From the NCBI GenBank assembly GCA_041655595.1, contig JBBAFB010000003.1, positions 1 to 49,727 of the forward strand: 49,727 nt of DNA, in the 5' to 3' direction. The notes under the pieces are model-generated. The model was not told the origin of the DNA and ran no database searches. It saw only the letters and a list, made by a program, of their open reading frames with translations. This document shows positions 9,945 through 39,349 of the stretch, in pieces (positions within the stretch are counted from its first letter, which is position 1; every line of letters begins with the position of its first letter). Source of the stretch: Bacillota bacterium. GTDB lineage: Bacteria > Bacillota > DULZ01. Made by a program: the position numbers and the translations under genes.

Positions 9945-9978
9945 TTTCTCCCTGCTTTCCTTAATATTTTATATTTAG

Positions 9979-11010: not shown

Positions 11011-11030
11011 TAACCATCACCTATAATAGC

Positions 11031-11708
11031 TTATTTAACTCTATACCTGTTTATTGGTCTGCCTACGGAGCCGTATTGCATTTCCAACTCTACCTTTTCC
11101 TTACTCACCAAGTATTCCAAATACCTCCTGGCGGTAACCCTGGCTATACCTAGGTTAGCAGCAACCTCCTCAGCTGAAAAACTACCCCTGTCCTCGTGCA
11201 GCAGCAGCAGAATTTGTTTCAAAGTTGTTTCGGTTAAACCCTTAGGTAGGGGTAATTCCGAGGGTTTACTTTTGCTTAAACCCATATCATCAATTTCCAT
11301 TTGATTAAGTGCATCCTTTTGCTGCAATTGGCGATACATTTCCTGGTAGGAAATTAAGGCATTTTTTATTCTTTCAAAGCGAAAGGGCTTAACAATATAA
11401 TCTACTACCCCATGTCTAAAACCCTGCTGAATGGTTTCCACATCCCTGGCGGCCGTGACCATGATCACATCGGTGGGTAAACCAAGCCTTCTTATTTCTT
11501 TCAAAACATATAAACCCTTTTCATCCGGCAAAAATATATCTAAAAGTAAAAGCTGTGGTTCCAATTGTTTTACCATCTGCAAAGCCTCTAAAGCCTGATC
11601 GGCTACACCCAGAATCCTGAAGCCACCCACCGCTTCGATATATTGCTTATTAACCTCCAATACCATGGGATCGTCTTCGACAATTACAATGCCTAACATT
11701 TTATACAC
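11031..11708 (-). CDS. dctR: CitB/DcuR/DctR-family response regulator
   Basis: 225 aa. REC domain (VEDD...LLLLDIFLPD) plus a C-terminal HTH. Overlaps the upstream kinase gene by 8 nt. Confidence 0.8.
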   Translation of the reverse strand: MYKMLGIVIVEDDPMVLEVNKQYIEAVGGFRILGVADQALEALQMVKQLEPQLLLLDIFLPDEKGLYVLKEIRRLGLPTDVIMVTAARDVETIQQGFRHGVVDYIVKPFRFERIKNALISYQEMYRQLQQKDALNQMEIDDMGLSKSKPSELPLPKGLTETTLKQILLLLHEDRGSFSAEEVAANLGIARVTARRYLEYLVSKEKVELEMQYGSVGRPINRYRVK

Positions 11709-13302: not shown

Positions 13303-13399
13303 TTTTCCTCCAAATAGATAATAGCGAATAGTTCGACTTTTCCTCCAATTTCTCCTTTATTATTTACAAAACCGTCATTAGTAAATTAAACTAAGGTAA

Positions 13400-13427
13400 T
13401 AAAAAAGACTCCCTTAAGGGAGTCTTG
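13400..13427 (-). terminator. rho-independent terminator after the TRAP permease gene
   Basis: Minus strand reads AAGACTCCC-TTAA-GGGAGTCTT followed by TTTTATT. Confidence 0.85.
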
Positions 13428-13445
13428 AAATAGTAACTTATTGGG

Positions 13446-18140: not shown

Positions 18141-19304
18141 CTATTCGTATCTCAAAGCATCCACCGGTTTAAATTTTGAAGCTTTATTCGCCGGGTATAA
18201 GCCAAAAAAGATTCCCACGAATAAAGAGAAGATTAAGGCTCCAAGTATCACGGGAATACCGGTTACATACCTTATTCCCATGGCCCCGGTAATTAAATAG
18301 GATGTGAGTATACCAAGTACTACCCCTATTAACCCTCCTACTCCACTCATCACGGAGGACTCAATCAGAAACTGAACTAAAATGTTCCCCCTCCCAGCCC
18401 CTATGGCCTTTCTAATGCCTATTTCCCTAGTTCTTTCGGTTACGGTAACCAGCATAATATTCATGATACCAATGCCTCCTACCAGGAGCGAAATTCCAGC
18501 TATGCCTCCCAACATAATTGTCAGCATACCTGTTACCTCTTTTAAAATACTCAGCATTTCGTCTTGGCTTAAAACCATAAAGGAATCCTTATTCCCGAAG
18601 CGGTCAAGTAAATACCCTTGGACATTTTCCTTTGCCAAAGCGGATTCCTCAGCAGAGTTTGCTTGCAACACGATACTATTAATTTGGGTCAGATTATATT
18701 GGCGCATTAAGCTGGTAACAGGAACAATCACTGTGTCATTACTGTCTCCCATAAGATTGCTTTCTTTTTCTTTCAAAATTCCTACCACCGTGTATTTGAT
18801 GCCGTCAACAGAAATTTCCTTATCAAGAGGGTTTTCTGCATCAAACAATTTATCGGCTGTAGTGCGTCCAATGATTGCTACTCTATTTCTGTAATCCACA
18901 TCAACCGGGGTAATTACCCTACCCGCATCTATTTCATAATTGTTGATCTTCATATAATTTTCGTTCCCGCCATTGATGGCAACTCTGGCTTTTTCTAAAT
19001 CATATTTAACTGTAGTTGATACAGAATACACCGGAGTTACGCTTTTTACCCCTTGCAGGCTTGCTAATTTATCCATATCTTTTAATTTCATCACTTGTTT
19101 TCTATCAAAAACATTAACATTAATAATATTGGCACCCATACTGGAGATACTCTCGGTCACCCCTTTAGTGGCACCCTGTCCAATAGAAATTAAAACAACT
19201 ACGGCAAAGACGCCTATAATGATGCCCAGCATGGTTAGAAATGTTCTTAATTTGTTGGAAAGAAAAGATTGAAAAGCCATTTTAATTATATTTCTTATAT
19301 TCAT
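18141..19304 (-). CDS. MacB/FtsX-type ABC transporter permease
   Basis: 387 aa. TM1, a large extracytoplasmic MacB_PCD-like domain, then 3 C-terminal TM helices of the FtsX fold. Confidence 0.85.
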   Translation of the reverse strand: MNIRNIIKMAFQSFLSNKLRTFLTMLGIIIGVFAVVVLISIGQGATKGVTESISSMGANIINVNVFDRKQVMKLKDMDKLASLQGVKSVTPVYSVSTTVKYDLEKARVAINGGNENYMKINNYEIDAGRVITPVDVDYRNRVAIIGRTTADKLFDAENPLDKEISVDGIKYTVVGILKEKESNLMGDSNDTVIVPVTSLMRQYNLTQINSIVLQANSAEESALAKENVQGYLLDRFGNKDSFMVLSQDEMLSILKEVTGMLTIMLGGIAGISLLVGGIGIMNIMLVTVTERTREIGIRKAIGAGRGNILVQFLIESSVMSGVGGLIGVVLGILTSYLITGAMGIRYVTGIPVILGALIFSLFVGIFFGLYPANKASKFKPVDALRYE

Positions 19305-19319
19305 CGCAATTTCCTTTCT

Positions 19320-19988
19320 TTAACCATTATCAACCAGTTGCCCATCTATTATCGCGACAGTTCTCTTTGCTTCTTTAGAAATCTCTGCATTATGGGTGAT
19401 CAGCACAATAGTTTTACCTTCCCGGCTTAACTCTTGAATTAAGGCCAATACATCCTGTCCTGATTTAGAATCTAAATTACCTGTAGGCTCATCTGCCAAA
19501 AGAACAGGGGGATTACCAGCCAATGCTCTGGCTATAGCCACACGTTGTTGCTGACCACCGGAAAGTTCTGTAGGTTTGTGGGACATTCTATCTCCCAAAC
19601 CCACCCTTTCCAAGGTTTCGATGCTTTTACGCATTCTATCCTTATAACTCATGCCTCTGTAAATCAAAGGCAGTTCCACATTTTCTAAAGCTGATAGTTT
19701 AGGCAACAAATTAAACTTTTGAAAAACAAAACCTATTTTTTGGTTTCTGATTTTGGCCAACTGTTTTTCATCATAGGTACTGATTTCCTTACCATCCAGA
19801 TAGTATTCGCCGGATGTAGGTAAATCAAGGCAGCCGATTATATTCATTAAAGTGGATTTGCCTGAACCAGAGGGCCCTATGATGGATAGAAACTCTCCCT
19901 CATCAACATGTAAGGTTACTCCTCTTAACGCCTTAACTTCTACCGCACCCATGTCGTAGGTTTTGGTGACATTTTTTAAATCTATCAT
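19320..19988 (-). CDS. ABC transporter ATP-binding protein (MacB/LolD-like)
   Basis: 222 aa. Walker A GPSGSGKST, signature LSGGQQQR, Walker B LLADEPT. Confidence 0.9.
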   Translation of the reverse strand: MIDLKNVTKTYDMGAVEVKALRGVTLHVDEGEFLSIIGPSGSGKSTLMNIIGCLDLPTSGEYYLDGKEISTYDEKQLAKIRNQKIGFVFQKFNLLPKLSALENVELPLIYRGMSYKDRMRKSIETLERVGLGDRMSHKPTELSGGQQQRVAIARALAGNPPVLLADEPTGNLDSKSGQDVLALIQELSREGKTIVLITHNAEISKEAKRTVAIIDGQLVDNG

Positions 19989-21583
19989 TACCTATTGCCC
20001 CCTACCTGTGGGTGGTTACCGCCTTCCCTTCCCGGGGGATCAAAGCCCATAATGAAACCATCATTATTATAGTCATTTAGCAATAATTTTTTATATACTA
20101 TTATATCTCCTTCATTTAAACCGGCAGTTATTTCAACCATGTTTTTTGTCACTAAACCGAGAGTAACATCCACATCCGATTTATTTCCAGTGACATCTTT
20201 AACAGTTGCCGTGTATTTACCCTCGACTTTTTTTAGGGCTTCAATGGGGACCACTAAAACATCCTCCCTGCTTTCTGCGGAAATTTCAATGTCTACACTC
20301 ATTCCGGCCATTAGCGATTTTCGATCATCCAAAGCGATTGTTACCTCGTAAGTTGTCACACCGCTTTGGCCGGCACCCTCCAAAGCCATCTTGGAAACTA
20401 TGCCACGAAACTTTTCGGTGGGATAGACTTCCGATGTGACTTCGACTTCTTGCCCTGCTTTTATTTTATTGATATCAAGCTCATCAACAGCTATTTTGAC
20501 TTCCATATTGGCTAAATCTGCCACAGTCACTAAAACTGTAGCCCTATCAACTACATCCTCCTCGGCAACGGCAACTTTTAAGACGGTCCCTTTTATTGGA
20601 GAGTAGAGGGTGTTACCTTCCTCCAATTCCTCCAATTGAGAACGAAATTTGGCAATAGCATTTTGCTTCTCTGCTATACTGAGACTTAGGTCGTCTTCGA
20701 TGGTGGCAATTAAATCACCCTTGGTCACTTTTTCTCCGTTTTTAATATGGGTGGATTTAACCTTGCCCCCAATTTTAGCAATAATTTGTTCCTCCTTTGT
20801 TGCTGCCATTTGGGCCTTATCCATACTTTGGAAGCTACCCTGGTAATTTTCTACAGTAACCTGCGCTAAATCACCAACACTATATCCGCCGGGATTATCT
20901 GTCTTAATGGTTACCAATAAACCGAAAGCACCAGCACCTTTTTGAACAGGGGTGCTATCTTTTTCAACAACAGTCCCAGTTATAGTGGTAAAAAAATCAT
21001 TGACCAACAGGGAAGCCGTATCTCCTATGGTTATTTTTTCAAAAGAAGCCTTGTTAAAATATGCTTCAAAATAGGCATTGTTAATATCTTTAATTTTTCC
21101 AACAGGGGCATTCGCTCCCAACTGATCCCCAGCCTCTAGTTTAAAGTCTGAAACAACACCGGAAATAGGAGCGTAAATAGCAAGCTGTTTTTGTTTTTCA
21201 TACAAATCGTTTAATTCCTTTTGGGATCTTTCAATACTCAGTTTTATACTGCTTAGTTCCGTTTGACCGCTACCGGTATTATTTGATTTAAGGGAGAGAA
21301 GCATTTGGTCTTTTTCTACCGGTTCGCCATCACTAACAAAAATTTCGTCAACAATACCGTTAACTTCCGACCTAATCAGCCTTCTATCAGCAGGATAAAC
21401 ATTACCACTGCCTGAAACGGAAATGGAGATATCCCCTTTAGCAACTGTGTATTCCACCTCTTGTTCCAAACCCATATTTTTTAGCGCATTAAGATTTTTA
21501 TTAACTACCGACCCAATTCCCAAACCAACTACAATTAGTGCCAAGACAATGATAATTATCCATTTCCTTTTTTTGTTTTTCAT
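19988..21583 (-). CDS. HlyD/MacA-family periplasmic adaptor (membrane-fusion) protein
   Basis: 531 aa. N-terminal TM anchor, coiled-coil hairpin and beta-barrel regions. Its stop overlaps the start of the ATPase gene. Confidence 0.8.
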   Translation of the reverse strand: MKNKKRKWIIIIVLALIVVGLGIGSVVNKNLNALKNMGLEQEVEYTVAKGDISISVSGSGNVYPADRRLIRSEVNGIVDEIFVSDGEPVEKDQMLLSLKSNNTGSGQTELSSIKLSIERSQKELNDLYEKQKQLAIYAPISGVVSDFKLEAGDQLGANAPVGKIKDINNAYFEAYFNKASFEKITIGDTASLLVNDFFTTITGTVVEKDSTPVQKGAGAFGLLVTIKTDNPGGYSVGDLAQVTVENYQGSFQSMDKAQMAATKEEQIIAKIGGKVKSTHIKNGEKVTKGDLIATIEDDLSLSIAEKQNAIAKFRSQLEELEEGNTLYSPIKGTVLKVAVAEEDVVDRATVLVTVADLANMEVKIAVDELDINKIKAGQEVEVTSEVYPTEKFRGIVSKMALEGAGQSGVTTYEVTIALDDRKSLMAGMSVDIEISAESREDVLVVPIEALKKVEGKYTATVKDVTGNKSDVDVTLGLVTKNMVEITAGLNEGDIIVYKKLLLNDYNNDGFIMGFDPPGREGGNHPQVGGNR

Positions 21584-22134: not shown

Positions 22135-23109
22135 TTACAATGCCCCTACTAAGACGGTATCGTTTCTGGGGTTAACCTTTTCTTGATTTTTAATATTAGC
22201 TTTTTCTACTAAAACCCGATAAATTTCATCCAGGCTAGGCTCCTCAATAATTATGTCTGAAATTGTAATTCCTGCCTCCATTAAAGGCTTTAACACCTTT
22301 GCTTTCTCCTCCCTATGACAGGTTAGCAATATGGAATCCATCCTAACCTCCAGTGGCCCTATCCCTTTGGCCATAAGCAACTGCCATAATTGAGGGTAGG
22401 AGCAAGCTAGCTTAATTGTCATCTTGGTTTTTAAACTTAATTGTTCTTCTAACTGCTGTTGTGTGCCAATTGCGATCATTTCTGCCTTATTAATAATACC
22501 AATATTATCTGCCAACTCTTCCGCATCGGCTAGGTTATGGGTTGAAAATAAAATTGTAACCCCGGAATCATTCCATTGGCGAATCATTTTTTTGAGTTCA
22601 ATAATTCCGATGGGATCTAAACCTGTAGTAGGCTCATCTAAAATTAACAATTCGGGTTTGTGGATTATAGCCTGAGCAAGGCCCAGCCTCTGCTGCATGC
22701 CCTTTGAAAAAGCACCTACCCTGCGTCCCTTAAACTCAGTAAGGCCCACTTGTTTCAGAACTTCCTCACACCTGGCAAGAGATAAATTCTTTAGTTTGGC
22801 ATAAAAAACAATGGTTTCCCAAGCGGTTAAGTTATCATAGAAATACATCCTTTCCGGCAAATAACCTATTTTATATTTGATAGCCCTATTCCGGCCATCT
22901 TGTTGAATCCCACCTATCGTAACTTTTCCGCCGGAGGGATTAACCAAGCCTAAAAGCATTTTTATTAGGGTGGATTTTCCAGCACCATTATGGCCCAATA
23001 AAGCGAAAATATCGCCCTCTTCCAGTTTCAAGTTAAGGTCTTTCACCGCCTGAAAACTACCAAAAAATTTATTAAGCCCTTCAATTTCTAAAATATATTT
23101 TTTATTCAT
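22135..23109 (-). CDS. nosF: ABC ATPase of the NosDFY maturation system
   Basis: Start moved to the ATG at 23107-23109 (SD AGGAGGAG upstream). Walker A GHNGAGKST, signature FSKGMQQR, Walker B LILDEPT. Sits in a nos gene context. Confidence 0.8.
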   Translation of the reverse strand: MNKKYILEIEGLNKFFGSFQAVKDLNLKLEEGDIFALLGHNGAGKSTLIKMLLGLVNPSGGKVTIGGIQQDGRNRAIKYKIGYLPERMYFYDNLTAWETIVFYAKLKNLSLARCEEVLKQVGLTEFKGRRVGAFSKGMQQRLGLAQAIIHKPELLILDEPTTGLDPIGIIELKKMIRQWNDSGVTILFSTHNLADAEELADNIGIINKAEMIAIGTQQQLEEQLSLKTKMTIKLACSYPQLWQLLMAKGIGPLEVRMDSILLTCHREEKAKVLKPLMEAGITISDIIIEEPSLDEIYRVLVEKANIKNQEKVNPRNDTVLVGAL

Positions 23110-23119
23110 GTTGCTCCTC

Positions 23120-23959
23120 CTAATAATCCTGGCGACGCCCGAAGGCCGCAACCGCCAATATCAAAGGAATCACTACCCATAGAAATAACACTAAGATTAA
23201 AAGAAAATCTCCGGAAGTTGAACTAATGGTACGAGTCAAAGCCGCTAGAGTGGGACCGAAGGTTGTTTCTCCCCCAAGTCGTAAAATCACCAACACCCTA
23301 ACCATGTCCACCGGGTTTAATAATAGCAAAGTCAATAATAGAGGAATGACAATTTTTATCTGCTGCATGGAAGCCACACCGATTGCCAAAAAGTCATAAA
23401 CCAAAACCATCAAAAACCACGCGAATATCGCCAGACCCATGGCTTGAGCCCTTCTACTTGTGACAACTGATAACAATAGGGCTATGCTTAAAAAAGTTAA
23501 ACCCAACACCATCGATAAAATAACAAAGGTTAAATAATCTCCCATACTCATGGTACCTACCTTGAGGGCAATGACAATGCCAGCTCCACCAAAACCAGTT
23601 AAGATTGCTGCCATCAGCGCTAGCCCCAGCCCAAGGAATTTGCCCACTATTACCTCGGCTTTCGAAACCGGGTGGACAAGCAAGACGTGAAGGGATCCGG
23701 ATTCTTTTTCCCCCGCAACTGCAGCCCCCCCCATCACCAAGGCTATGAGGGGCAAAAGATAAAGCACTAAGTTTAGCAAACCGGCGGTGACTCGATTAAA
23801 GCCTTGGTAGCCACCGCCAACCCCCAAACCGGACATGCCAAAAAATGAAATCAGGAGAGCAAGCAAGGCAAAAACTATTGTAAAGGTAATCAGCCAACGG
23901 CTTCTAATAGCTTCCAGAAGCTCTTTTTCAGCTACTGTAATCATTTGAGAAATTTTCAC
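23120..23959 (-). CDS. nosY: ABC-2-type permease of the NosDFY system
   Basis: 279 aa, ~6 TM helices. GTG start preceded by GGGGAGGTGG and overlapping the nosL stop (ATGTGA). Confidence 0.8.
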   Translation of the reverse strand: MKISQMITVAEKELLEAIRSRWLITFTIVFALLALLISFFGMSGLGVGGGYQGFNRVTAGLLNLVLYLLPLIALVMGGAAVAGEKESGSLHVLLVHPVSKAEVIVGKFLGLGLALMAAILTGFGGAGIVIALKVGTMSMGDYLTFVILSMVLGLTFLSIALLLSVVTSRRAQAMGLAIFAWFLMVLVYDFLAIGVASMQQIKIVIPLLLTLLLLNPVDMVRVLVILRLGGETTFGPTLAALTRTISSTSGDFLLILVLFLWVVIPLILAVAAFGRRQDY

Positions 23960-24486
23960 ATTACCACCTCCCCTTCACTTTGCACGCCACCGGTTTCTGT
24001 TTCTGTCCCAAAGCCAATATCAAATTTGACCAACTTAACTTCTTCCCAGGAAATGATCTTTCCTTCAATTTTCTGTGCCATTTCTTCCGCCTGTTCTTGC
24101 GATTTAAAGGCCACTATTCCAAAGCTCATGGGTGTATCAATTCTACCTTGAACATAAAAGGCTTCCTTTGCCGGAGCCCACTCAGTTGTTGCAAAATCCT
24201 TCACATATATTGCACCCAGCGACCTTTCCTCCTCTAAACCTAATCTTTTCAAATAAAGTATCAAGCAACCAATATCATCAAAATTTTCGTGTTGCCCAAG
24301 ATTGTTAATTACCTGGCCTGCAAATCGTAAGTCTATAATACTCATTCTGCAAACTGGACAATCATCGAGGGTCGGATCAATAACCCTTGGTTCCAAATCA
24401 AAACTACTTCCGCATCCTGATAGCAAAAACAATAAAATCAACAAAAATGTAATTGGTAATAGCCTTTTATTTAACACTACATTCAC
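23956..24486 (-). CDS. nosL: NosL copper-chaperone lipoprotein
   Basis: 176 aa. Lipobox LLSGCGS. NosL-type CPVCRM motif close to the N-terminus. Confidence 0.8.
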   Translation of the reverse strand: MNVVLNKRLLPITFLLILLFLLSGCGSSFDLEPRVIDPTLDDCPVCRMSIIDLRFAGQVINNLGQHENFDDIGCLILYLKRLGLEEERSLGAIYVKDFATTEWAPAKEAFYVQGRIDTPMSFGIVAFKSQEQAEEMAQKIEGKIISWEEVKLVKFDIGFGTETETGGVQSEGEVVM

Positions 24487-25966
24487 CCCGTTTAAGCAAG
24501 TTCCGGAACGAGCCCACTTTTTTATCCAAGGAAAGCCCTCTCCAGTAAAGAATAATTCCAGCCAGCAACATTGCCAATGAATAAAGGGCCAGGGTTTTAT
24601 TTGTAGCTTGTTTATTTATTTGAAGGAATTCCGGGATTCTTACTGCCGCCGGATTTATTAAGGGGTATGGATCCTCTGCTTTTGGGATAGAAATAACTGG
24701 AAAAGTCTTTTCACTAAACTCTAGTGCTTTTGCGGCAGGGCTATTTAAAAATAGCCTAACCCCCGGTGCCTTACCCATTAAATAGGTAAAGACATCCCCC
24801 GTAAAATGTGGGATATCACCCACTCCATCTTGATCCAAATCAAACCCTCGGTAATCACTCCAGTAGTTTCCCCGACCGCTAGCATGAAACTCATTACCAC
24901 GGCCAACTGTAAAGGCAATTAGAGCGATTTGCTGCATATTGTCAATAAAGTTGTTATCTATAAAAACGTTATCAGTAGAGCTTGAGATTAGGTCTAGCCC
25001 AATATCATTCATGGCTATTAAATTGTTGCGAATGGTATTGTGCATAGAATGATCCAAAAAAAACCCTCTCGTATTATCAAACACAATATTTCCTTCTGCA
25101 AGGCTGTGGTCGCAATGAGCAAATAGAATCCCATAGGCACGATGTCCTCGGCTTCCTGCCAAAACATTATTTCTGAAAACAATATACTTTGAAAACATGG
25201 GTGCGGCACCTGCAACGTTATCTAACAAAATATTACCTTCAAAGTTGTTATACCATGAATACATATAGTGAATACCATAACGGACGTTAAAAATTTGGTT
25301 ATTAATTACCCTATTATGATAAGAGTAATCAAAATAGATCCCATCCCTAGTATCAGTAATTATATTACTTTCCATCAAATTTTCTGGGGAATCAAATAGG
25401 TGTATTCCATCACCGCCATCACCTGCAAATTTAATGTCATAACTTGAGGCTGCCGTGTTTTCGTCCAATGTAACTTTACCTAAATCTCTAACAACCGGTC
25501 TGCCCTTTATTAAGTTACGCCTGATCACATTTTCAGATGCTCTTTCTAAATAAACCCCAAAAAGATTATTAATAAAACGGTTATCTTCCACTAAGTTATT
25601 ATTACTTTTGATTTTAATTCCGGCGTTGGTCTCCTCTAGAATTTTTCCACTAAAGATAATTTCAAAACCTTTAACAGTTACCTCATCCGCTTCAATTGTG
25701 ATTACATCACCAAGCCCCTCCCCATCAATAATAGGCATTTCAAGCCCTAAAAGCCGTATGGATTTATTAATCACCAATCGCCCATCATACTTACCAGGGT
25801 GCACCCGTATAACATCCCCATCCTCCGCCGTTGTTAAGGCTTTTTGAATAGTAGGTATAGGGCCACCAGGCCAGACTTCGATAGTGCGTGCTTCCGCCGG
25901 GCTGGACAGGATTAAAAAGCACCCCAGAGACAATAAAATTATTGCTCTACTGCCGGCTTTTCCCAT
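24467..25966 (-). CDS. nosD: NosD periplasmic right-handed beta-helix protein
   Basis: Start moved to the ATG at 25964-25966 (GGAGG 8 nt upstream). Signal peptide, many parallel beta-helix repeats (N-I/N-N-x-I patterns), C-terminal TM anchor. Confidence 0.85.
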   Translation of the reverse strand: MGKAGSRAIILLSLGCFLILSSPAEARTIEVWPGGPIPTIQKALTTAEDGDVIRVHPGKYDGRLVINKSIRLLGLEMPIIDGEGLGDVITIEADEVTVKGFEIIFSGKILEETNAGIKIKSNNNLVEDNRFINNLFGVYLERASENVIRRNLIKGRPVVRDLGKVTLDENTAASSYDIKFAGDGGDGIHLFDSPENLMESNIITDTRDGIYFDYSYHNRVINNQIFNVRYGIHYMYSWYNNFEGNILLDNVAGAAPMFSKYIVFRNNVLAGSRGHRAYGILFAHCDHSLAEGNIVFDNTRGFFLDHSMHNTIRNNLIAMNDIGLDLISSSTDNVFIDNNFIDNMQQIALIAFTVGRGNEFHASGRGNYWSDYRGFDLDQDGVGDIPHFTGDVFTYLMGKAPGVRLFLNSPAAKALEFSEKTFPVISIPKAEDPYPLINPAAVRIPEFLQINKQATNKTLALYSLAMLLAGIILYWRGLSLDKKVGSFRNLLKRGECSVK

Positions 25967-26535
25967 CGCCGAAACCTCCAAAGGGCTATCAACATAAGAA
26001 TTATACCAGCCCCTAAAAGATAGCCCCCAAGCTGAAAACTACTATAGGTGGTGAAATTTGCTAGCTGGTTTTGCCCCATCATAGGTGGGACGAAGGGGGG
26101 AATTTTGATAGCCGCCATTGGATCCAAGTCTGTACCATACTTTCTCAGCCAAAACCACAGGTCATAAAGGCCCAACAAACCCCCGGCACCGGCGATAACA
26201 AATGCCGTACTGCCAAGCCACACCTTCCCTGAAATTGCCGTTAAAAAAGCTATGGCCACAATTGCACCCACAATGTAAACCATAAACTGCAACTCGGGAA
26301 AATCGGCCTCAGAAATTTCCTTCATTCCGATGTAATGATTCAAATTGTTTAAAATATCAATTTTCCCACCAATCTTATTAGCAAACACCTCCATCCTGAG
26401 ACCCTCGGGATAAATTGTTGCAATTAATTCCAGTCGCCACCAGGGGAAAAATAAGCACGCTACCAACAACAGCCCAGCAATCACAAATAAAATTCTACCG
26501 GTGATACTAAGTTTTCCATTTAAAAACTTACCCAT
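25939..26535 (-). CDS. nosB: NosB-like integral membrane protein (the gene that follows nosZ in clade II clusters)
   Basis: 198 aa with ~4 TM helices, directly downstream of nosZ. The assignment rests on position and topology only. Confidence 0.55.
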   Translation of the reverse strand: MGKFLNGKLSITGRILFVIAGLLLVACLFFPWWRLELIATIYPEGLRMEVFANKIGGKIDILNNLNHYIGMKEISEADFPELQFMVYIVGAIVAIAFLTAISGKVWLGSTAFVIAGAGGLLGLYDLWFWLRKYGTDLDPMAAIKIPPFVPPMMGQNQLANFTTYSSFQLGGYLLGAGIILMLIALWRFRRWEKPAVEQ

Positions 26536-31383: not shown

Positions 31384-31400
31384 ATGCAACTTTCGTGCCA
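31384..31400 (-). promoter_or_regulatory. sigma-54 (-24/-12) promoter of the nos operon
   Basis: Minus strand reads TTGGCACGAAAGTTGCAT, which matches the consensus TGGCAC-N5-TTGCW at every fixed position. It lies ~120 nt upstream of the first cytochrome c start. Confidence 0.75.
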
Positions 31401-31470: not shown

Positions 31471-31620
31471 CCAACCCATGTGTGCCCCAACTTTATTCCA
31501 CGGGGACAGCTTTTTGCCCATTTGAATATTTCCACAAACCTTTTTCCCAAAGAAAAATTGCACCCCGCCAATGTTTCAACGGGATGCATATTCAAAGAGA
31601 GGGTGGTTTTTGAAATATTT

Positions 31621-32040
31621 TTATATTGTTATTTCATCCTTAATAGTTTGCAAATACACACCCAACAGGACAATAATCCCCCCTAAAACATAGAACACCT
31701 TTGCGGTAGTATGACATTCCATGGGCATCATGCAAACTCCAATACCTAAATTAGTCGGCAATATTATTACTATTAATCCCAGGGTTGCCATTATTATCCC
31801 AAGACGCTTTTGGACTAATAATTCTTTGCTCAAAAATATCAACAAACCGGTAACTAGTATAACTAGTCCCAGCAAAACCCCCGCCTGCCCCGTATAATGA
31901 CATTTCATATGGACCATTTTACCCGTGGTCAATTCCAAAAGTTTTGCACATACCGGAGCTAATTGAAAAGGTGTTAGGACCACGACTGCTCCAATAATTG
32001 TGCCAACAAGACCGACCGCTTTGCTTCTTTTGTTATACAC
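31621..32040 (-). CDS. DUF4418-like four-TM membrane protein with Cys/His/Met motifs
   Basis: 139 aa. GTG start with AGGAGG 7 nt upstream. Motifs HMKCH and CMMPMECH face the same side between TM helices. Confidence 0.6.
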   Translation of the reverse strand: MYNKRSKAVGLVGTIIGAVVVLTPFQLAPVCAKLLELTTGKMVHMKCHYTGQAGVLLGLVILVTGLLIFLSKELLVQKRLGIIMATLGLIVIILPTNLGIGVCMMPMECHTTAKVFYVLGGIIVLLGVYLQTIKDEITI

Positions 32041-32107
32041 TTTAAAACCTCCTTTTAACTAGTTCTATTGTTAAGCTTTTTATATTGGGTTTAAGGTATT
32101 ATTGGGT

Positions 32108-32830
32108 TTATCTCGACAGATTTACAAACTGGCTTGCCACCTCTTTAAAAAAAGTCCTATTGAGGCAGCCCTGCTTTAAGGAGTAGACGTGCTCAGCATT
32201 TTTTGCAAGCACCACATCGTGGGTGGCAACAACAACTATTTTCCCTGTTCTTCCCTGTCCCATTAACCAATCACCTAAGTGCTGCCGTAAACTCTCATCC
32301 TGTTCCGCCGTTGGTTCATCTGCTAAAATTAAGTCCGGCTCATTTGCCAAGGCTCTAGCCAAAGCAACTCTACGCCTTTGGCCACCGCTTAATTGGTGAG
32401 GTAAAAATTGTGTTCTGTCCGCTAAATCTAGATCCTTTAAAAGAGTGTCTACCCTTTGGTTGGCTTGCATTTCATTCATTTTTTTTCTTCCTTTAATCCA
32501 AAGTGGCAATAAAATATTTTCCTTTACAGTTAGGGTAGGAATTAAATAACATCGCTGAAAAACGAAACCAATTTTGTATGAACGTAAGTAGGTCTTTTCT
32601 TTCTCATCCATCATGCAGATTGAGCGCCCATCAAAAATCACCTCTCCTTGGCTGGGTTTTAGCAAAAGGCCCAAAATATGCAGCAAAGTGCTTTTACCAC
32701 TCCCCGAGGGACCTAACAAGCTAACTGTATCACCGGATTTTAAATTCAAATTAACTCCCCTGATTGGCTGCACCTGACCACCTAAGCCATCCTGGTAGAC
32801 ATGAGAAACGTCTTTTAATTCAATTTCCAT
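32108..32830 (-). CDS. ABC transporter ATP-binding protein
   Basis: 240 aa. Walker A GPSGSGKST, signature LSGGQRRR, Walker B ILADEPT. Confidence 0.9.
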   Translation of the reverse strand: MEIELKDVSHVYQDGLGGQVQPIRGVNLNLKSGDTVSLLGPSGSGKSTLLHILGLLLKPSQGEVIFDGRSICMMDEKEKTYLRSYKIGFVFQRCYLIPTLTVKENILLPLWIKGRKKMNEMQANQRVDTLLKDLDLADRTQFLPHQLSGGQRRRVALARALANEPDLILADEPTAEQDESLRQHLGDWLMGQGRTGKIVVVATHDVVLAKNAEHVYSLKQGCLNRTFFKEVASQFVNLSR

Positions 32831-32843
32831 CTTTTCACCACCC

Positions 32844-34046
32844 TTATTTTAACTCTCCTTCGGTAAGAACAACTACAGGATCAAGTTTGGCTGAGGTTCT
32901 TGCAGGCCCCAAAGCGGCCAAAGTACTAATGAAGATAACCAATAAGACTGCAAAAAATAAAATACCCAGTAGCTGTAAACCTAGTGGTAGTAAGAAAGGA
33001 AATGAACTGTGTTTTTCTATAAAATTTTTCAAAAACCAAATAAAACCAAAGCCCAAGAAAACTCCTATGCCTCCTGCAACAAAGGCAGTGGTAAAGGTTT
33101 CCGCCATAATTAAATTAAATAGACCCTTTTGCCCCATTCCCAGAGCCCTTAAAAGCCCTAACTCTTCCTGCCTTTCCATTACTAAAGACGAATAACGAGA
33201 TAACAATGAGGCTAAGGTCAATCCAATTATTAAAGCTGCCAATAACCAAGTTAAAACTTGAAATACCTTTAACTGTTCTTTTAAATCTAAAAATATTTTG
33301 GCCGATGCCATAGCCTTTACCCCAGGTATGCGCCCAATTTGTCTTGCTAGAATTGCGGGATCATAATTGCTTTCTACTTGTATTAAAACTGCTGAAACCA
33401 ACTCCAAAGGGTCACCTTGCTCCTCCCATATCTCAACCAAAAAAGGACTCCCTGATGCTAAACTTCTTGCGGTTTCGATGGGTACGAAAATAGTTTTATC
33501 AACGCTACCCCCCAAAGGTTTTAAATAATCTACTACCTGAAAGGCCTCTCCCAAAATTAATACCCTGTCTCCGAGAAAGGCCGGAACTCCGCCACCTACA
33601 ACTACTTCTTTTTCTTTTAACTCTCTTCCTAAACCTATAGATAAAAGGCGATTTACCAGAAAATCATTTTCCGGATCGTAACCGACTAAACGGTATTCCT
33701 CTGGTAGGCTACAACAACTTTGATTTAAAGTTTGACTAAAAAACTGAGCTGTGGCTGCCTTTACACCCGGTATTAGAGCTATTTCCTCTACTATTTCTTT
33801 TTTCATATAAATATTTGCGGGAGAACCAGTAAATAGCACCTGCCCTGCCTCAAACTCCGCGGAAGAAGGCAGTGCTAGTATATCGGCACCTAAGTTATCG
33901 GCCGTTCCTTTTGCACCCCTTTCCAACCCCCAAACGGTTAAAAAACAAGTTACCAGGGCAGCAGTGCAAAAGCAAACCACAAAAACAGTTAAACCTGTTT
34001 GCCATGGACGGCGCCGCAAATTTCTACTGATTAAACGCCAATACAT
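32844..34046 (-). CDS. FtsX/MacB-type ABC transporter permease
   Basis: Start moved to the ATG at 34044-34046 (GGGGGGTGG upstream). TM1, a large extracytoplasmic domain, then 3 C-terminal TM helices. Confidence 0.8.
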   Translation of the reverse strand: MYWRLISRNLRRRPWQTGLTVFVVCFCTAALVTCFLTVWGLERGAKGTADNLGADILALPSSAEFEAGQVLFTGSPANIYMKKEIVEEIALIPGVKAATAQFFSQTLNQSCCSLPEEYRLVGYDPENDFLVNRLLSIGLGRELKEKEVVVGGGVPAFLGDRVLILGEAFQVVDYLKPLGGSVDKTIFVPIETARSLASGSPFLVEIWEEQGDPLELVSAVLIQVESNYDPAILARQIGRIPGVKAMASAKIFLDLKEQLKVFQVLTWLLAALIIGLTLASLLSRYSSLVMERQEELGLLRALGMGQKGLFNLIMAETFTTAFVAGGIGVFLGFGFIWFLKNFIEKHSSFPFLLPLGLQLLGILFFAVLLVIFISTLAALGPARTSAKLDPVVVLTEGELK

Positions 34047-34088
34047 TTTTCCACCCCCCACAATTTGCGTTTACAGTAATATTAATTT

Positions 34089-34104
34089 AGCAAAAAACAT
34101 GCCA
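34089..34104 (-). promoter_or_regulatory. sigma-54 promoter of the FtsX-ABC/DUF4418 operon
   Basis: Minus strand reads TGGCATGTTTTTTGCT (GG-N10-GC spacing correct), ~45 nt upstream of the permease start. Confidence 0.65.
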
Positions 34105-34344
34105 AGATATTTGTTGCGGAATTATGCACTTACAAGTGAAACAATTATCTTATTCGCCTTTTATGCTATTTTGAGCGAGACATGTCTGACCCTACTGTCC
34201 CCTCCCTGCCCCTAATTTCTGTAACACAAAATACTTACAAGGTGGCAAGCCTTGCCCCCAAACGCTTGATTTATGGTCCTTGCCATAAACAATTAACTGG
34301 GTTTTTTCGCCTTAAATATCAGCATTTGATTACCTTTGAAAAGT

Positions 34345-34360
34345 TGGAATGTTTTTTGCT
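34345..34360 (+). promoter_or_regulatory. sigma-54 promoter of the lipoprotein gene
   Basis: Plus strand reads TGGAATGTTTTTTGCT, identical to the divergent promoter at 15 of 16 positions. It lies ~52 nt upstream of the ATG at 34412. Confidence 0.6.
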
Positions 34361-34411
34361 AGTTTTTAAATTTAGATAATCAATAACAACTTGAAAGGGG
34401 TTCATATTTAA

Positions 34412-34972
34412 ATGCAACAAAGAAAAATTAATAAAATTCTATCAGTTCTATTGTCTATTCTTATTTTAGGCTCCATCACCAGTTGCGGACAAAACACACT
34501 CCCGGGAACAAATGAAATAAAAGATGCCGATCAGACTGTCCACAACCATCAGAGTTTTAGCACTGTCTACGAGCTGGATCAAATAATAGAGTTACACCCT
34601 ATTAAAGTGAGACTGGTAAATACCGGAATAATTTCTAACCCTTTATATGAAAAAGGAAGTGATGATCAGAAGGGACATTTGGCATTAGGTCTGGAAGTAG
34701 GAAATGTATCAAGCGATCTGGCATGGTTTTTTTCCGAACAATCCGAGATAATTCTGAATTCGGGTGAAATCTTAGAAACGGATGTAAACACATCCTCTGA
34801 TTTGGGAGGAAGTTTTCCACCCCACAGATTGAAAAAAGGGTTTTTAGTTTTTCCTTTTAAAGATACGGAGCCAAATACAATCAAAGAATATGTTTTAAAA
34901 ATCAAAGCCCCCTTAAATAGCAAACAAATTTCCATTGGGGAGGATTTAGAATTAAAAATTAACCTAAAATAA
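34412..34972 (+). CDS. secreted lipoprotein, DUF4352-like beta-sandwich
   Basis: 186 aa. Lipobox GSITSCG. Family call is tentative. Confidence 0.55.
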   Translation: MQQRKINKILSVLLSILILGSITSCGQNTLPGTNEIKDADQTVHNHQSFSTVYELDQIIELHPIKVRLVNTGIISNPLYEKGSDDQKGHLALGLEVGNVSSDLAWFFSEQSEIILNSGEILETDVNTSSDLGGSFPPHRLKKGFLVFPFKDTEPNTIKEYVLKIKAPLNSKQISIGEDLELKINLK

Positions 34973-35009: not shown

Positions 35010-36386
35010 CTAAATTAAGTTATATTTATTTAATAAACGGTGAATCGTTTTTCTGTCAATCTCTGCAGTTATAGCTGCCTGGGTTACATTTCCATCATGC
35101 TTTTCCAATAAATTTTCTATATATTTTATTTCAAAATCTTTTACCCAGTTTTGTTTTGCCACATGAAAAGGCAGATCGAAAAGCATTTGATTTGATCTAT
35201 CTTCATTATTTTTAAGAAGGTTTGGGGGTAAATCTTCAGGCAATATTGTTTCCCCTTCACAAAGTGAGATAGCTCTTTCTATCACATTTTTTAACTCCCT
35301 AACATTACCCGGCCAGTTATAACTTTGTAAAATCTCCATCGTTTCAGCTGAAACCCCGCTAATTTTCTTTTGTGCCGTCTCTGCAAATTTGCGACTAAAA
35401 AAATACACTAGTAGAGGGATATCCTGCTGCCTTTCTCTTAACGGTGGTAGTTTCAAATTAATTACATTAATTCTATAGTATAAATCGTCTCTAAATTCTT
35501 TGTGTTGAATTGCCTCTTCTAAATCGCGATTTGTTGCGGAAACTAGGCGGAAATCTACTTTAATCAACTGATTTCCCCCCACTCTTCTAAATGAGCGTTC
35601 TTCTAAAGCTCTTAACAACTTTGCCTGTAAAATCGGACTCATTTCACCTATTTCATCTAGGAAAAGAGTACCCTTATCTGCCAGTTCCATTAAACCCTTT
35701 TTAGTCATGTGGGCCCCGGTAAAGGCACCTTTTTCGTGACCAAAAAGTTCACTTTCCAGTAAATTATCCGGCAAAGAAGCGCAGTCAACTGGTATAAAAG
35801 GTCCTAGGCTCCGATTGCTGTTTTTGTGGACACTTCTGGCGATCAGTTCTTTCCCTGTACCACTTTCCCCTTTGATCAGTACTGCTGCTTCACTGCCACC
35901 TAATTTACCGATGGTTCTAAAAATTTCTTGAAGCCCACCGTTAGCGCCAATAATATTTTCTGTGTGGAGGGGCTCTTGGATTTGCATTCTTAATAATCGG
36001 TTTTCTTCCCTTAATGCTTTTTCCCGCAAGGCTTTTTCAATCACAATCTGCAATTCATCAACGGAAAAAGGTTTAGCGAGATAATCCCGTGCTCCACCTT
36101 TCATAGCCCTGACCGCAGTATCTATGCTGGCATAACCCGTAATAACAATTACACATGTGTCGGGAAAAAGCTCCTTCGCAACTTTTAAAACTTGAAATCC
36201 ATCTACCTCCGGCATTTTTAAATCAGTAATAATCAAATCCGGTTGTATTTTTTCCATTTCGGCTACCGCTTTCGCACCCTCATTAAAGTTTACCGGTTTA
36301 TAGCCCATTTTTTTAACAACACGCGAGCAAGTTTCAAGCATATCAAGTTCATCATCAACAAGCATTACAACCCTTGGTTCTTCCAT
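35010..36386 (-). CDS. sigma-54-dependent NtrC-family response regulator (REC + AAA+ + Fis-type HTH)
   Basis: 458 aa. Receiver (DDE...IITDLKMP), Walker A GESGTGKE, sigma-54 contact loop GAFTGA, C-terminal HTH (GNVTQAAITAEIDRKTIHRLL). Confidence 0.9.
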   Translation of the reverse strand: MEEPRVVMLVDDELDMLETCSRVVKKMGYKPVNFNEGAKAVAEMEKIQPDLIITDLKMPEVDGFQVLKVAKELFPDTCVIVITGYASIDTAVRAMKGGARDYLAKPFSVDELQIVIEKALREKALREENRLLRMQIQEPLHTENIIGANGGLQEIFRTIGKLGGSEAAVLIKGESGTGKELIARSVHKNSNRSLGPFIPVDCASLPDNLLESELFGHEKGAFTGAHMTKKGLMELADKGTLFLDEIGEMSPILQAKLLRALEERSFRRVGGNQLIKVDFRLVSATNRDLEEAIQHKEFRDDLYYRINVINLKLPPLRERQQDIPLLVYFFSRKFAETAQKKISGVSAETMEILQSYNWPGNVRELKNVIERAISLCEGETILPEDLPPNLLKNNEDRSNQMLFDLPFHVAKQNWVKDFEIKYIENLLEKHDGNVTQAAITAEIDRKTIHRLLNKYNLI

Positions 36387-36392
36387 CTATTA

Positions 36393-37658
36393 CTACTCCC
36401 TTATGCTAATATATGGGAAGTAAATACTAAATCTACTTCCCTTACCCAGTTCGCTGGATACATTTATGGTACCACCATGGTCGCCAATAATTTTTAAACT
36501 AACGGGTAAGCCCAAACCAGTGCCCAGGTCTCTGCTTTTAGTGCTAAAAAAAGGATCAAAAAGTTTAGCTATAGTTTCTTCTGTCATCCCCTCGCCAGTA
36601 TCTTCTATATCCAGCCTGTTCACCTTTAACTCCGGCAAGTTTCGGCAAACTATAAAAATATTTCCACCACGTGGCATGGCATCCCCGGCATTGGCGATTA
36701 GATTAACTAATACTTGTTGAAGCTGCTCCTTATTCCCTTCCACTACAATGGAATCCGGCAATTTTATTTTAAACTCAATCCCTTTTCTAAGAAATTGTCT
36801 TTTAAACCAATCAACAGTTTCATTCACTAAAGGTTTCAAATCAACCAACTCTGTTTCTGCAATGGGTGGCCTTGTAAAAGTAAGCAGTCCCCTTGTAATA
36901 TGACTGATTCTTTCTATATGTTTTTTTATAATTTCCAAATCTTTAACCAATTCGGGAGACAAACTACTACCCATCTCTAAAAATATTAACCCCAACCTTG
37001 CACTGATGACACCCACCGGGTTATTTATTTCATGCGCCAAATTTGCAGCCAGTTGTCCTGCCGCTGCTAGCCTTTCGGTTAGTATCATCTGATTTTGTGC
37101 CTTTTCTAATTCCTCAATACTTTCTCTGAGGGCCTCATTTAGCCCGCAAATTTCTTTATTGGCTTTTTCTAGGCTGTCCCTTTCTTCAGCTAAATTGTTT
37201 ATTAAACGATCCCTATGCAGGGTTGCGGCTAATTGATGTCCAATGGCCATGATAATTTCCATATTGGCTCTACTCAATTTTTCTTCCCCGGGGTTTTTTA
37301 AAGTTATTACCCCTAAAACTTCAGTTCCTGCAACTAGTGGTATGCAGACATGACAAAGGGAGTAACACTCTTTCTGAACCACACCACAACAGTGAGACCT
37401 TTTATCTGCATTAATAATAATTGGGAGCTGGTCATTATAAACCTTACATTGGTGTTTTTTATCAATGGTACTACAGACAAAATTGCCCCCATCTTGTAGC
37501 TTAATTTGGGACTTATAAGGACTAAATGCCTTATTTAATTCGTTTTTTGCTGCATCAAGCATTTCATCAATAGACAAAGGTAAAAAGCTGGTAATATTAT
37601 TAATTTTAATTAAAGCCTCCGTTTGCAAGTTCAGCTTCCTGTCAAGCAAAAACCTCAC
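36393..37658 (-). CDS. soluble sensor histidine kinase with a Cys-rich GAF-like N-terminal domain
   Basis: 421 aa with no TM helices. GAF-like region contains 7 Cys, including CC-x6-C-x3-C-x2-C. H-box LAHEINNPVG, N box NLIANAGDA, G boxes DTGEGM and GTGLGL. The start may be the TTG at 37628 (AGGAAG SD) rather than the GTG at 37658. Confidence 0.85.
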   Translation of the reverse strand: MRFLLDRKLNLQTEALIKINNITSFLPLSIDEMLDAAKNELNKAFSPYKSQIKLQDGGNFVCSTIDKKHQCKVYNDQLPIIINADKRSHCCGVVQKECYSLCHVCIPLVAGTEVLGVITLKNPGEEKLSRANMEIIMAIGHQLAATLHRDRLINNLAEERDSLEKANKEICGLNEALRESIEELEKAQNQMILTERLAAAGQLAANLAHEINNPVGVISARLGLIFLEMGSSLSPELVKDLEIIKKHIERISHITRGLLTFTRPPIAETELVDLKPLVNETVDWFKRQFLRKGIEFKIKLPDSIVVEGNKEQLQQVLVNLIANAGDAMPRGGNIFIVCRNLPELKVNRLDIEDTGEGMTEETIAKLFDPFFSTKSRDLGTGLGLPVSLKIIGDHGGTINVSSELGKGSRFSIYFPYISIRE

Positions 37659-38664
37659 CCTTTACCACTTTACCCATTATACTAATGTTTGCCGGATTTG
37701 CATTTAACGGGACTTCACACCCTGTACTTAAAATAAAACCTTTCCCTTTGCTCCCAATATCAAGCAAATCCTTACATTGTTTAGCTATATCTTCTGTCTT
37801 TAGATTAATTAGATCAAAAGGTTTAATGTTACCAGCTAAGGCGAGATCAGGTGCTAGATCCATACACTCTTTTAAAGAAACTTCATAATCAATTGTGGCC
37901 AAATCAACACCGCAATCTTTATAGTAAGGTATAATGTATTTTGTCCTACCCGTAATCATTAACCAATTTATTTTTGCACCTTCAAGACGAAAGTGAGAAA
38001 ATAGTTCCTTTAAGAGGGGGGCTACAAATTTGCGAAAAATCCGAGGAGGAATAATATTTTGCGAAGCGGTTGGTTCCATGATGATAATTATTGAAGCCCC
38101 CGACCTAATCAGGGCCTTTCCATAATCTTTGCAAACATGAAATGTTTGTCTTAACAAGCTTCGAAACTTATCTGGTTCATCTACTAATAAATACAGCAAT
38201 TGATCTAAACCCATTAGTTGTCCCGCAATGCTTGTCGGTCCAACCACACACCCAACCACCGGTATATCATCCTTCACATTTTCCTTTAAGATAGCACATG
38301 CTTTAATTACTTCCCGCATCCTGCCCGCTGTATAAGGATCGAATAACGGCAGGTCCTTGATCTTTGATAGACTAGAGAAAACAGGTCTTGTCACATAAGG
38401 GTAATCATTTTCAGGAAAATATGTTTTACAGCCCAGAACCTCCGCCTCTAGGGAGTTATCACCATAGGCAAAAACAGCATCATAGCCAAAGTGCTTTTGT
38501 GCCCTTAGTTGACAATCTGCCATTATTTCTCCGTTGTCCAAATAATCTTTGAGCCAAACCCCCTGAAAAATTGCAGCATAACCAAATACAAGCGGAATGC
38601 AAATACAATCAGTATGTTTTTTTTTGCCTTCAACCATTGCTATCATTTTTTGCAATACGGTCAT
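37642..38664 (-). CDS. UroD-superfamily MtaA/MtbA-like corrinoid methyltransferase homologue
   Basis: Start moved to the ATG at 38662-38664 (GGAGTG upstream). 340 aa. URO-D/MT2-A-like length and sequence, and it follows a corrinoid protein gene. Confidence 0.75.
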   Translation of the reverse strand: MTVLQKMIAMVEGKKKHTDCICIPLVFGYAAIFQGVWLKDYLDNGEIMADCQLRAQKHFGYDAVFAYGDNSLEAEVLGCKTYFPENDYPYVTRPVFSSLSKIKDLPLFDPYTAGRMREVIKACAILKENVKDDIPVVGCVVGPTSIAGQLMGLDQLLYLLVDEPDKFRSLLRQTFHVCKDYGKALIRSGASIIIIMEPTASQNIIPPRIFRKFVAPLLKELFSHFRLEGAKINWLMITGRTKYIIPYYKDCGVDLATIDYEVSLKECMDLAPDLALAGNIKPFDLINLKTEDIAKQCKDLLDIGSKGKGFILSTGCEVPLNANPANISIMGKVVKGEVFA

Positions 38665-38668
38665 AATG

Positions 38669-39349
38669 TTACACTCCTTCTTTCTTTCGAAGATAGTCAA
38701 TTACGTCAAAAGCAGTATTAGCAACAAAATCAACATTTAAGTCCTTAGGGTTTGATTGGCGGGTGGCACCACCCCCCGCTAAAACAAGGACACCTTCCAA
38801 ATCAATCGCACCTAATGCTGGCTTCACTTCCTTAATGTAATGCATGGTGGTAGTGATTAAACTGCTAATGCCGATATATTTTGCGCCTTCTTTTTTAGCC
38901 TCCATTGCAAAAACTTCCGGCTCGACATCCTTTCCCAAATCTACCACTCTATAGCCGGCCATTTTTAGTAAGATGGCCACTATATTTTTACCAAGGTCGT
39001 GAATATCCCCCTTAATGGTCCCTAAAACAAAAACCTCTTTACCTTTATACCAGGTATCTAAAGAAACACACTCCCCTTCACCTAAACGTGGACAAATAGA
39101 TTGTTCCATAACTTCCATAACAGCCCTGCCAGCCAATAATATTTCCAAAAGATTAAAATGGTCATTATTACATTTAACATCCAAAGAAACTAGGGCTTCA
39201 GTTAGGCCTTCCTCTACAACTTGACGCACATCAACACCTAGAGCCAGTAAGTTTTCCGCTACCCTGACCGCCTCGGTAGCCTGTCCATCTGCCACAAGGT
39301 CTGCTAGTCTTTTTATTTCATTTTTTCTTGAATCTTTTTTTGCTGCCAT
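38669..39349 (-). CDS. corrinoid (B12)-binding protein, MtaC/MtbC-like (cap + Rossmann domain)
   Basis: 226 aa. Base-off/His-on signature GDIHDLGKN ... SSLITTT ... LAGGGA. SD GGAGG 6 nt upstream. Confidence 0.85.
   Translation of the reverse strand: MAAKKDSRKNEIKRLADLVADGQATEAVRVAENLLALGVDVRQVVEEGLTEALVSLDVKCNNDHFNLLEILLAGRAVMEVMEQSICPRLGEGECVSLDTWYKGKEVFVLGTIKGDIHDLGKNIVAILLKMAGYRVVDLGKDVEPEVFAMEAKKEGAKYIGISSLITTTMHYIKEVKPALGAIDLEGVLVLAGGGATRQSNPKDLNVDFVANTAFDVIDYLRKKEGV

Follow-up and report, generated by a model that had tools for sequence, protein, structure and literature searches.

A cysteine-lined type VII ABC module with a DUF4418 partner beside the clade II nos operon of a Bacillota bacterium: a possible accessory to N2O reductase

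Background

In this study, we report a three-gene module located just upstream of the clade II nos operon in a 49,727-nt stretch of DNA (the window) from a Bacillota bacterium of a landfill metagenome (contig JBBAFB010000003.1, assembly GCA_041655595.1). The genes lie contiguously on the minus strand over 34061..31621 and encode, in this order, an FtsX/MacB-type permease, an ATP-binding cassette (ABC) ATPase and a small membrane protein of the family DUF4418. Conserved cysteines in both membrane proteins, a fixed place in most nos clusters of the window type and a second association with nosZ elsewhere lead us to a tentative proposal, which we regard as possible: that the module is a type VII ABC mechanotransmission machine which relays a thiophilic cargo and is accessory to the building or upkeep of the centres of the N2O reductase NosZ.

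The supply of copper to NosZ and of sulfide to its CuZ centre is a standing question, and understanding is poorest for Gram-positive bacteria and for organisms of clades II and III, which matter as sinks of N2O. A Cys-lined ABC machine found in clade III nos clusters as well as in clade II ones of the Desulfitobacterium/Desulfosporosinus type provides a concrete candidate for a step in NosZ maturation or maintenance. Its context also gives a first lead to the function of the orphan family DUF4418, for which a search of 1.84 billion representatives gave at least 713 clusters at 50% identity. The genomes sampled were those of one phylum (401 genomes) and of the order of Desulfitobacterium (103 genomes), together with two plasmid-database records; a scan of genome contigs for the module contributed three loci. 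Genomes and loci are referred to by our own labels (G and L numbers).

The permease and its ATPase

The original prediction, made from the letters of this DNA, had placed the three genes at 31621-34046, and all of them were found there. The permease gene (34046..32844, minus strand; 400-405 aa) has a reading frame open from a GTG at 34061; its start is probably the ATG at 34046, the outer boundary given in the prediction, because the Shine-Dalgarno sequence GGGGGTGG precedes it and homologues begin there. Pfam searches identified PF02687 FtsX (E=4.8e-16) and PF12704 MacB_PCD (E=2.6e-9), both above their cut-offs. The AlphaFold2 model (predicted local distance difference test score, pLDDT, 87) has helices at residues 19-57, 253-296, 311-351 and 361-391, which form four transmembrane (TM) helices with elongated stalk helices; the extracytoplasmic domain is inserted between TM1 and TM2. 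LolCDE, MacB and HrtBA were the top matches of this model in Foldseek (E 1e-18 to 1e-14, probability 1.00), with YtrEF and BceAB also matched, and a profile search of PDB sequences agreed (E 1e-17 to solved type VII members). The ATPase gene (32830..32108, minus strand; PF00005, E=1.5e-34) encodes a LolD/FtsE/MacB-type protein in which the two Walker motifs (A and B), the signature and the H-switch are all intact, and its top NCBIfam matches were LolD, FtsE and MacB. The FtsX and MacB-like domains, the four-TM fold and a cognate ATPase with intact motifs are those of a type VII ABC system and, by analogy with its relatives, the module would work by mechanotransmission, the ATP-driven movement of an outer domain.

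The permease carries a vicinal Cys-Cys at residues 116-117 of the 405-aa frame (codons at 33711..33716, minus strand; motif NQSCCS), which the AlphaFold2 model places in a loop, residues 111-123, between two strands of the extracytoplasmic domain. The consensus in DUF4418-adjoining permeases is N-[QED]-S-C-C-[ST]; among 36 DUF4418-linked permeases C117 is invariant and C116 is at least 90% conserved. The motif is present in 37 of the 45 FtsX-like reading frames of the fetched loci and is missing from the ordinary MacB permease of the window (18141-19304) and from second-copy permeases. The conservation of this Cys-Cys alongside a DUF4418 partner is a new observation of this study.

Other assignments fitted the module less well. 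No HlyD-family membrane-fusion gene of the kind that marks tripartite MacAB-TolC systems was found within 31621-34411; the permease has 400-405 aa and four TM helices rather than the roughly 650 aa and ten TM helices of the BceAB type, and the regulator is of the NtrC type rather than BceRS. NosDFY is excluded by a permease of the FtsX type instead of an ABC-2 NosY and by the lack of a NosD in the module. The FtsX-ABC pair had been predicted to be separate from both NosDFY and a MacAB-like system, and this was borne out: the window encodes a true NosD, NosY and NosF within NosDLYF at 25981..22135 and a MacAB-like system with its own membrane-fusion protein at 21583..18141 (both on the minus strand), each distinct from the module.

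The DUF4418 protein

The third gene (32040..31621, minus strand) encodes a 139-aa protein which is a clear member of PF14387 (E=3e-28; 98.7 bits against a gathering cut-off of 27) and carries the family-invariant residues C31, C47, C103 and C109. As predicted, it has four TM helices and the motifs HMKCH and CMMPMECH. In the AlphaFold2 model (pLDDT 93.7) the helices span residues 4-27, 46-70, 74-93 and 108-132, and loop 1 holds a beta-hairpin. Loops 1 and 3 would face outward by the positive-inside rule, since the N-terminus and the loop between helices 2 and 3 are rich in Lys and Arg, and C31, M45, C47, C103, M107 and C109 would then be located at the predicted outer membrane face.

Conservation was scored over 146 representatives at no more than 50% identity. 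The four Cys are kept at 99-100%, M45 at 97% and M107 at 82%; because just these four Cys and two Met are conserved family-wide, the core signature of DUF4418 is C...M-x-C, occurring twice. The form HMxCH / CMxPMECH is common among nos-linked copies, yet not exclusive to them. A Foldseek search of the PDB with the DUF4418 model gave no match at E <= 0.001; the generic four-helix bundles CD20, claudin and VKOR appeared at E >=0.02, and as VKOR was matched at that level only, a DsbB/VKOR-type relation was considered unsupported.

In the phylum sample, 14 of the 17 DUF4418 loci have an adjoining FtsX gene, and the pairing is seen again in Treponema and in the order sample, which marks DUF4418 as a dedicated partner of such permeases. 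If the two membrane proteins form a complex, its outer face would bear six conserved Cys together with two Met.

Association with nos clusters

In the phylum sample DUF4418 was present in 16 genomes and NosZ in eight; five genomes had both, with the genes adjacent in four, among them one in which a contig end splits the locus. The order sample yielded DUF4418 in 21 genomes and NosZ or the lactonase-type L-NosZ in 17, of which ten held both, always in one cluster, and seven held NosZ only. Among the 13 nos clusters of the window type, 11 (those of G000, G096, G139, G241, G404-407, G414, G416 and G449) have the module placed after a divergent lipoprotein gene and before the first cytochrome gene, with the kept order histidine kinase, NtrC, lipoprotein, FtsX, ABC, DUF4418, cytochrome c, Rieske protein, cytochrome b, NosZ, NosB and NosDLYF. 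The module stands beside nos across several GTDB families. Identity between loci is 50-63% for the module proteins and 77-79% for NosZ, and in a quick IQ-TREE search the nos-linked permeases formed one long-branched clade (Shimodaira-Hasegawa-like approximate likelihood ratio test, SH-aLRT, 100). Judged by its sequence, the window copy represents a paralogue lineage apparently dedicated to the clade II nos operon of Desulfitobacterium-like Bacillota.

Clade III L-NosZ clusters are a second, independent association of the module with nosZ. G409 and G430 (Desulfitobacteriaceae) encode the clade III lactonase-type NosZ (NF052460, 915 bits against a cut-off of 700), and both L-NosZ clusters found hold a CC-type FtsX-ABC pair and DUF4418. 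The gene order in both (L080 and L107 of G409; L081 and L108 of G430) starts with RACo, a kinase, a sigma-54 activator, L-NosZ and cytochrome b, and continues with a YtkA/FixH-like lipoprotein, CC-type FtsX-ABC, a BNR/sortilin-type propeller, a second FtsX and DUF4418-FtsX-ABC. The window itself does not belong to clade III: its NosZ scores 129.7 bits to NF052460, against the cut-off of 700, and nosDLYF is present.

One further locus, L049 (G348, contig C20, about 8640-11594), contains two adjacent NosZ-like frames, one of about 469 aa with 42% identity to the window NosZ and the other of about 560 aa with 33%. They follow a kinase-activator pair and could be nosZ paralogues in tandem or a single gene that is broken.

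Promoters, transcription units and neighbouring genes

The spacing between the permease and ATPase genes is 13 bases, and the 67-bp gap between the ATPase and DUF4418 genes contains an AAGGAGG site. A pattern search identified a sigma-54-type -24/-12 element, TGGCAT-N5-TTGC, at 34104..34090 (minus strand), about 43 nt 5' of the permease start, and another, TGGCAC-N5-TTGC, at 31400..31386 (minus strand), which belongs to the downstream nos operon and is kept in L030, L036 and L046; the pattern had five matches in the window against 0.58 expected by chance. Since their GG and GC are correctly spaced, the genome has rpoN and an enhancer-binding protein is encoded close by, the elements at the module and at nos are assigned, by motif, as putative sigma-54-dependent promoters. 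The near-identical 16-mer TGGAATGTTTTTTGCT, read by eye at 34345..34360 on the plus strand, faces the divergent lipoprotein gene and is likely to be a third such promoter; reverse-facing elements of this kind were found in L005, L032, L036 and L046.

A terminator-like hairpin, which folded with a 13-bp stem followed by a T-run, lies directly 3' of DUF4418 at 31588..31559 (minus strand) and precedes the nos promoter. Since it separates the two, the module appears to be its own transcription unit in the window organism; the promoter architecture that had been described as shared with nos is thus present as sigma-54 elements at both, each serving a unit of its own. A sigma-54-like motif precedes the permease gene in all five nos-linked loci checked. 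In L005 and L032 a sigma-54 motif search found no separate promoter between DUF4418 and the cytochrome gene, and therefore the module probably heads the nos operon there.

The genes for an NtrC-type sigma-54 activator (36386..35010) and a soluble histidine kinase (37658..36393), both on the minus strand, are syntenic in all related loci, and their products (35010..37658) are the presumed regulators of the module and nos. From its promoter motif, the window module would probably depend on sigma-54 and this NtrC-type activator for its expression, as would nos. The regions upstream of the two promoters share no common words of nine bases or more; just short GGGGCA blocks recur, which gives no sign of an activator site common to both. 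A predicted lipoprotein of 186 aa is encoded divergently from the module at 34412..34972 (plus strand). It has no Pfam or NCBIfam match and no similarity to the DUF4352-like protein adjoining DUF4418 in L037, and its gene is kept in every nos cluster of the window type except that of G492. Downstream of the module follow genes for cytochrome c, a small membrane protein, the Rieske protein, a split cytochrome b, a further cytochrome c, NosZ, a NosB-like protein and NosD, L, Y and F.

Upstream of the histidine kinase, at 37642-39349, the window carries a corrinoid cassette. In L043 (G253, 8084-13798), from a genome without nosZ, genes for a corrinoid protein, a UroD/MtaA-like protein and RACo are located directly 5' of DUF4418-FtsX-ABC; the resemblance may be due to chance in cassette-rich genomes.

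Proposed function

We tentatively envisage that a permease dimer, the ATPase and the four-helix DUF4418 protein form one complex, whose outer face would present thiols and thioethers: four Cys and two Met from DUF4418, and the Cys-Cys on a flexible permease loop. ATP binding and hydrolysis in the cytoplasm would shift the extracytoplasmic domain, so that a cargo held by DUF4418 at the membrane surface could pass to the Cys-Cys loop of the permease and outward to an acceptor. This cargo could be Cu(I), or sulfide or sulfane sulfur. Most likely, by analogy, the window module would aid the building or upkeep of the copper-sulfur centres of NosZ as a helper beside NosDLYF that is not essential.

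Copper fits the nos and L-nos contexts, the YtkA-like protein and a locus with cupredoxins. The latter, L041 (4633-9938), comes from a genome of the same family as the window genome (G004) in which no NosZ was found. Three cupredoxin-domain proteins adjoin DUF4418-FtsX-ABC there, and in one of the three a NapH/NosR-like Fer4_5 membrane domain is fused on; the locus also encodes a YncE-like propeller and a di-haem cytochrome c peroxidase. Sulfur agrees with the cysteine and sulfonate contexts described below and the need for a sulfide source for CuZ. A more radical version of the proposal, which we consider decidedly unlikely, holds that the module is the sulfur rather than the copper route to CuZ in Gram-positives and, generally, a hitherto unrecognised ATP-driven cysteine relay taking sulfur across the outer membrane face; if true, it would account for the nos, L-nos, molybdenum reductase and cysteine-assimilation contexts alike.

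Several findings weigh against a role specific to NosZ copper. The co-occurrence with nosZ by which the original prediction was to be checked largely holds in the window-type clusters and fails in the other direction, with nosZ missing from 11 of the 16 DUF4418-positive genomes of the phylum sample and from 11 of the 21 carriers of the order sample, and most module copies are not near nos. Because the nos-linked clade has a single origin, the 11 co-occurrences are not independent. Two nos clusters of the same type, those of G336 (99% complete and in one contig) and of G492 (93% complete), are without the module, which is therefore accessory and not required for nos; neither DUF4418 nor a close CC-type FtsX was found anywhere in these genomes, and the former keeps the divergent lipoprotein gene. 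The module is likewise missing from clade II clusters of other types, whose NosZ is about 44% identical, and the nos cluster of the window already has a full NosDLYF set. At the level of residues, the predicted soft-metal motifs survive as the conserved Cys and Met; H44 (14%), H48 (48%) and H110 (40%) are not kept among the 146 representatives and M104/M105 are rare. The conserved Cys may also be structural disulfides, and on this evidence either copper or sulfur may be the cargo.

The wider contexts of the family point in the same direction. The window genome has a second module copy on contig C93 (L128, 62-8810), where DUF4418, FtsX(CC) and ABC are followed by a beta-propeller lipoprotein of the YVTN type, which has a vicinal Cys-Cys insert of its own (PMDCCLDP), and then by a reductase with a molybdenum-bis-pyranopterin guanine dinucleotide (Mo-bisPGD) cofactor exported by twin-arginine translocation (Tat), with iron-sulfur (FeS), NrfD-type and TorD-type partners. 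Copies in L033, L040 and L112 lie beside SsuA-type importers, cysteine synthase and cystathionine enzymes, one copy adjoins ArsD/ArsR/ArsA, and when the neighbours of 20 non-nos loci were counted (105 in all), the commonest were propellers, importer permeases, nitrogenase-like proteins and molybdenum enzymes, with copper proteins few. As a whole, the family is a Cys-lined type VII ABC unit attached to operons for extracytoplasmic redox enzymes and to sulfur assimilation. The propellers of the YVTN type in non-nos modules were considered as CuZ-type enzymes and dropped, since the His ligands of NosZ and L-NosZ are not kept. In L117 (G440, 2947-4002) an ApbE-family flavin transferase, of the NosX family, adjoins DUF4418-FtsX-ABC with two further FtsX-type permeases.

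These contexts are what a general homeostasis of thiols, sulfur or soft metalloids at the outer membrane face would lead one to expect. Such a system would have no specific part in building NosZ; it would export or relay cysteine, sulfide, persulfide or reductant, or clear thiophilic toxics, and would have been recruited to redox-enzyme operons for envelope upkeep. The SsuA-type binding proteins and the arsenic genes beside module copies agree with it, as do the two nos clusters that manage without the module. Cysteine and sulfur-assimilation clusters with the module occur in two phyla, the second being that of Treponema saccharophilum, whose plasmid pTS2 (L131, 4600-14013) has a substrate-binding protein, a permease, DUF4418, FtsX(CC), ABC, cysteine synthase, Rrf2 and cystathionine enzymes; DUF4418 is of half size here, with 67 aa, two helices and one C...M-x-C unit. 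The reductase of C93, a molybdenum enzyme of the dimethyl sulfoxide (DMSO)/selenate/thiosulfate family (Phs/Psr/DMSO), is found in the same arrangement in four other genomes, making five in all. We nevertheless regard general homeostasis as doubtful, since the nos-linked copies form a distinct long-branched clade with a fixed place and a nos-type promoter, and the two copies of the window genome are tied to different reductase operons, which argues for operon-specific rather than general roles.

Control of a partner protein, in the manner of FtsEX, would need no cargo at all: the extracytoplasmic domain would grip or switch a protein of the outer face, such as NosL, the divergent 186-aa lipoprotein, a YVTN propeller or NosZ itself, and the Cys would be structural or redox-switch disulfides. 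Among type VII ABC systems, FtsEX and LolCDE have proteins as their targets, and the permease fold matches LolCDE; moreover, a lipoprotein gene is conserved divergently beside the module, non-nos modules very often include a gene for a lipoprotein beta-propeller, some with a Cys-Cys insert of their own, and L-NosZ is itself a lipoprotein propeller. The nos-linked modules, however, have no propeller gene of their own, and a near-invariant Met beside Cys (M-x-C twice) suits a ligand site more than a disulfide, so that we find this explanation unlikely. The default role of many MacB/FtsX-type systems would make the module an unrelated exporter of peptides, detergents or drugs that hitch-hikes with the nos cluster, and its absence from two otherwise equal nos clusters is in keeping with this. 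Such an exporter is very unlikely in our estimate: the module has no membrane-fusion protein, Bce-type sensor or 10-TM permease, its Cys-rich partner and permease CC motif are conserved across phyla, its place and promoter motif have been retained despite drift to about 50-60% identity, and it has a second, independent association with clade III nosZ.

On balance, the reading we tentatively retain is that the module relays a thiophilic cargo and is accessory to NosZ. The metal- or sulfur-handling role for NosZ suggested in the original prediction fits the conserved outer Cys and Met and the family contexts; as a role on which every nos cluster depends, it does not stand, given the two nos genomes without the module.

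Comparison with known systems

A comparative nos map of Desulfosporosinus and Desulfitobacterium does not mention the module genes (PMC11096178); if the module is dispensable, published nos cluster maps are right to omit it. A full-text literature search for DUF4418 found the gene name alone, beside an ABC permease in Bifidobacterium longum, and nothing was found combining nosZ, FtsX and clade II. Within PF14387, a family without a described function, the window protein has all family-wide invariant residues.

A MacB-type link to nos is published for clade III only. Clade III nos clusters, which lack nosDFYL, are reported to have a MacB-type transporter that was suggested to be NosDFY-like (PMC13685413, a 2026 review that summarises He et al. 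2025, Nature 646:152). The likeness is that a MacB-type system stands beside an N2O reductase, and G409 and G430 hold the same module family. The window reductase, by contrast, is of clade II, and the permeases of the two clades are 25-27% identical and fall in other branches of the tree. Since the window cluster keeps a full NosDLYF set, its module cannot simply replace NosDFY.

NosDFY-NosL was reportedly described as a copper delivery machine by Mueller and co-workers in 2022. Its ABC motor moves an outer-face domain rather than pumping, and Cu(I) is handed to apo-NosZ (PMC13685413). It offers a functional analogy for the module, although the folds differ, NosY being an ABC-2 type permease and NosD a beta-helix. 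The handover of a cargo by surface Cys of a small membrane protein also has a likeness in mercury resistance. MerT, MerC and MerF are small membrane proteins that pass on a thiophilic metal through vicinal pairs of Cys located at the membrane surface, and import takes place without an ABC motor, whereas the module has one; no sequence or fold relation to the Mer proteins was found by Pfam or by Foldseek of the DUF4418 model.

The closest relatives are the type VII ABC systems MacB, LolCDE, FtsEX, HrtBA and YtrEF, with which the module shares the four-TM permease, the stalk helices, the outer domain between TM1 and TM2 and the LolD/FtsE-like ATPase. It differs from them in having no membrane-fusion protein, outer-membrane partner or Bce-type sensor. 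To our knowledge, no solved type VII member has a vicinal Cys-Cys in its outer domain or a DUF4418-like partner. To the common type VII plan the module adds both: a conserved outer-domain Cys-Cys and a dedicated four-helix partner, DUF4418, with its four Cys and two Met.

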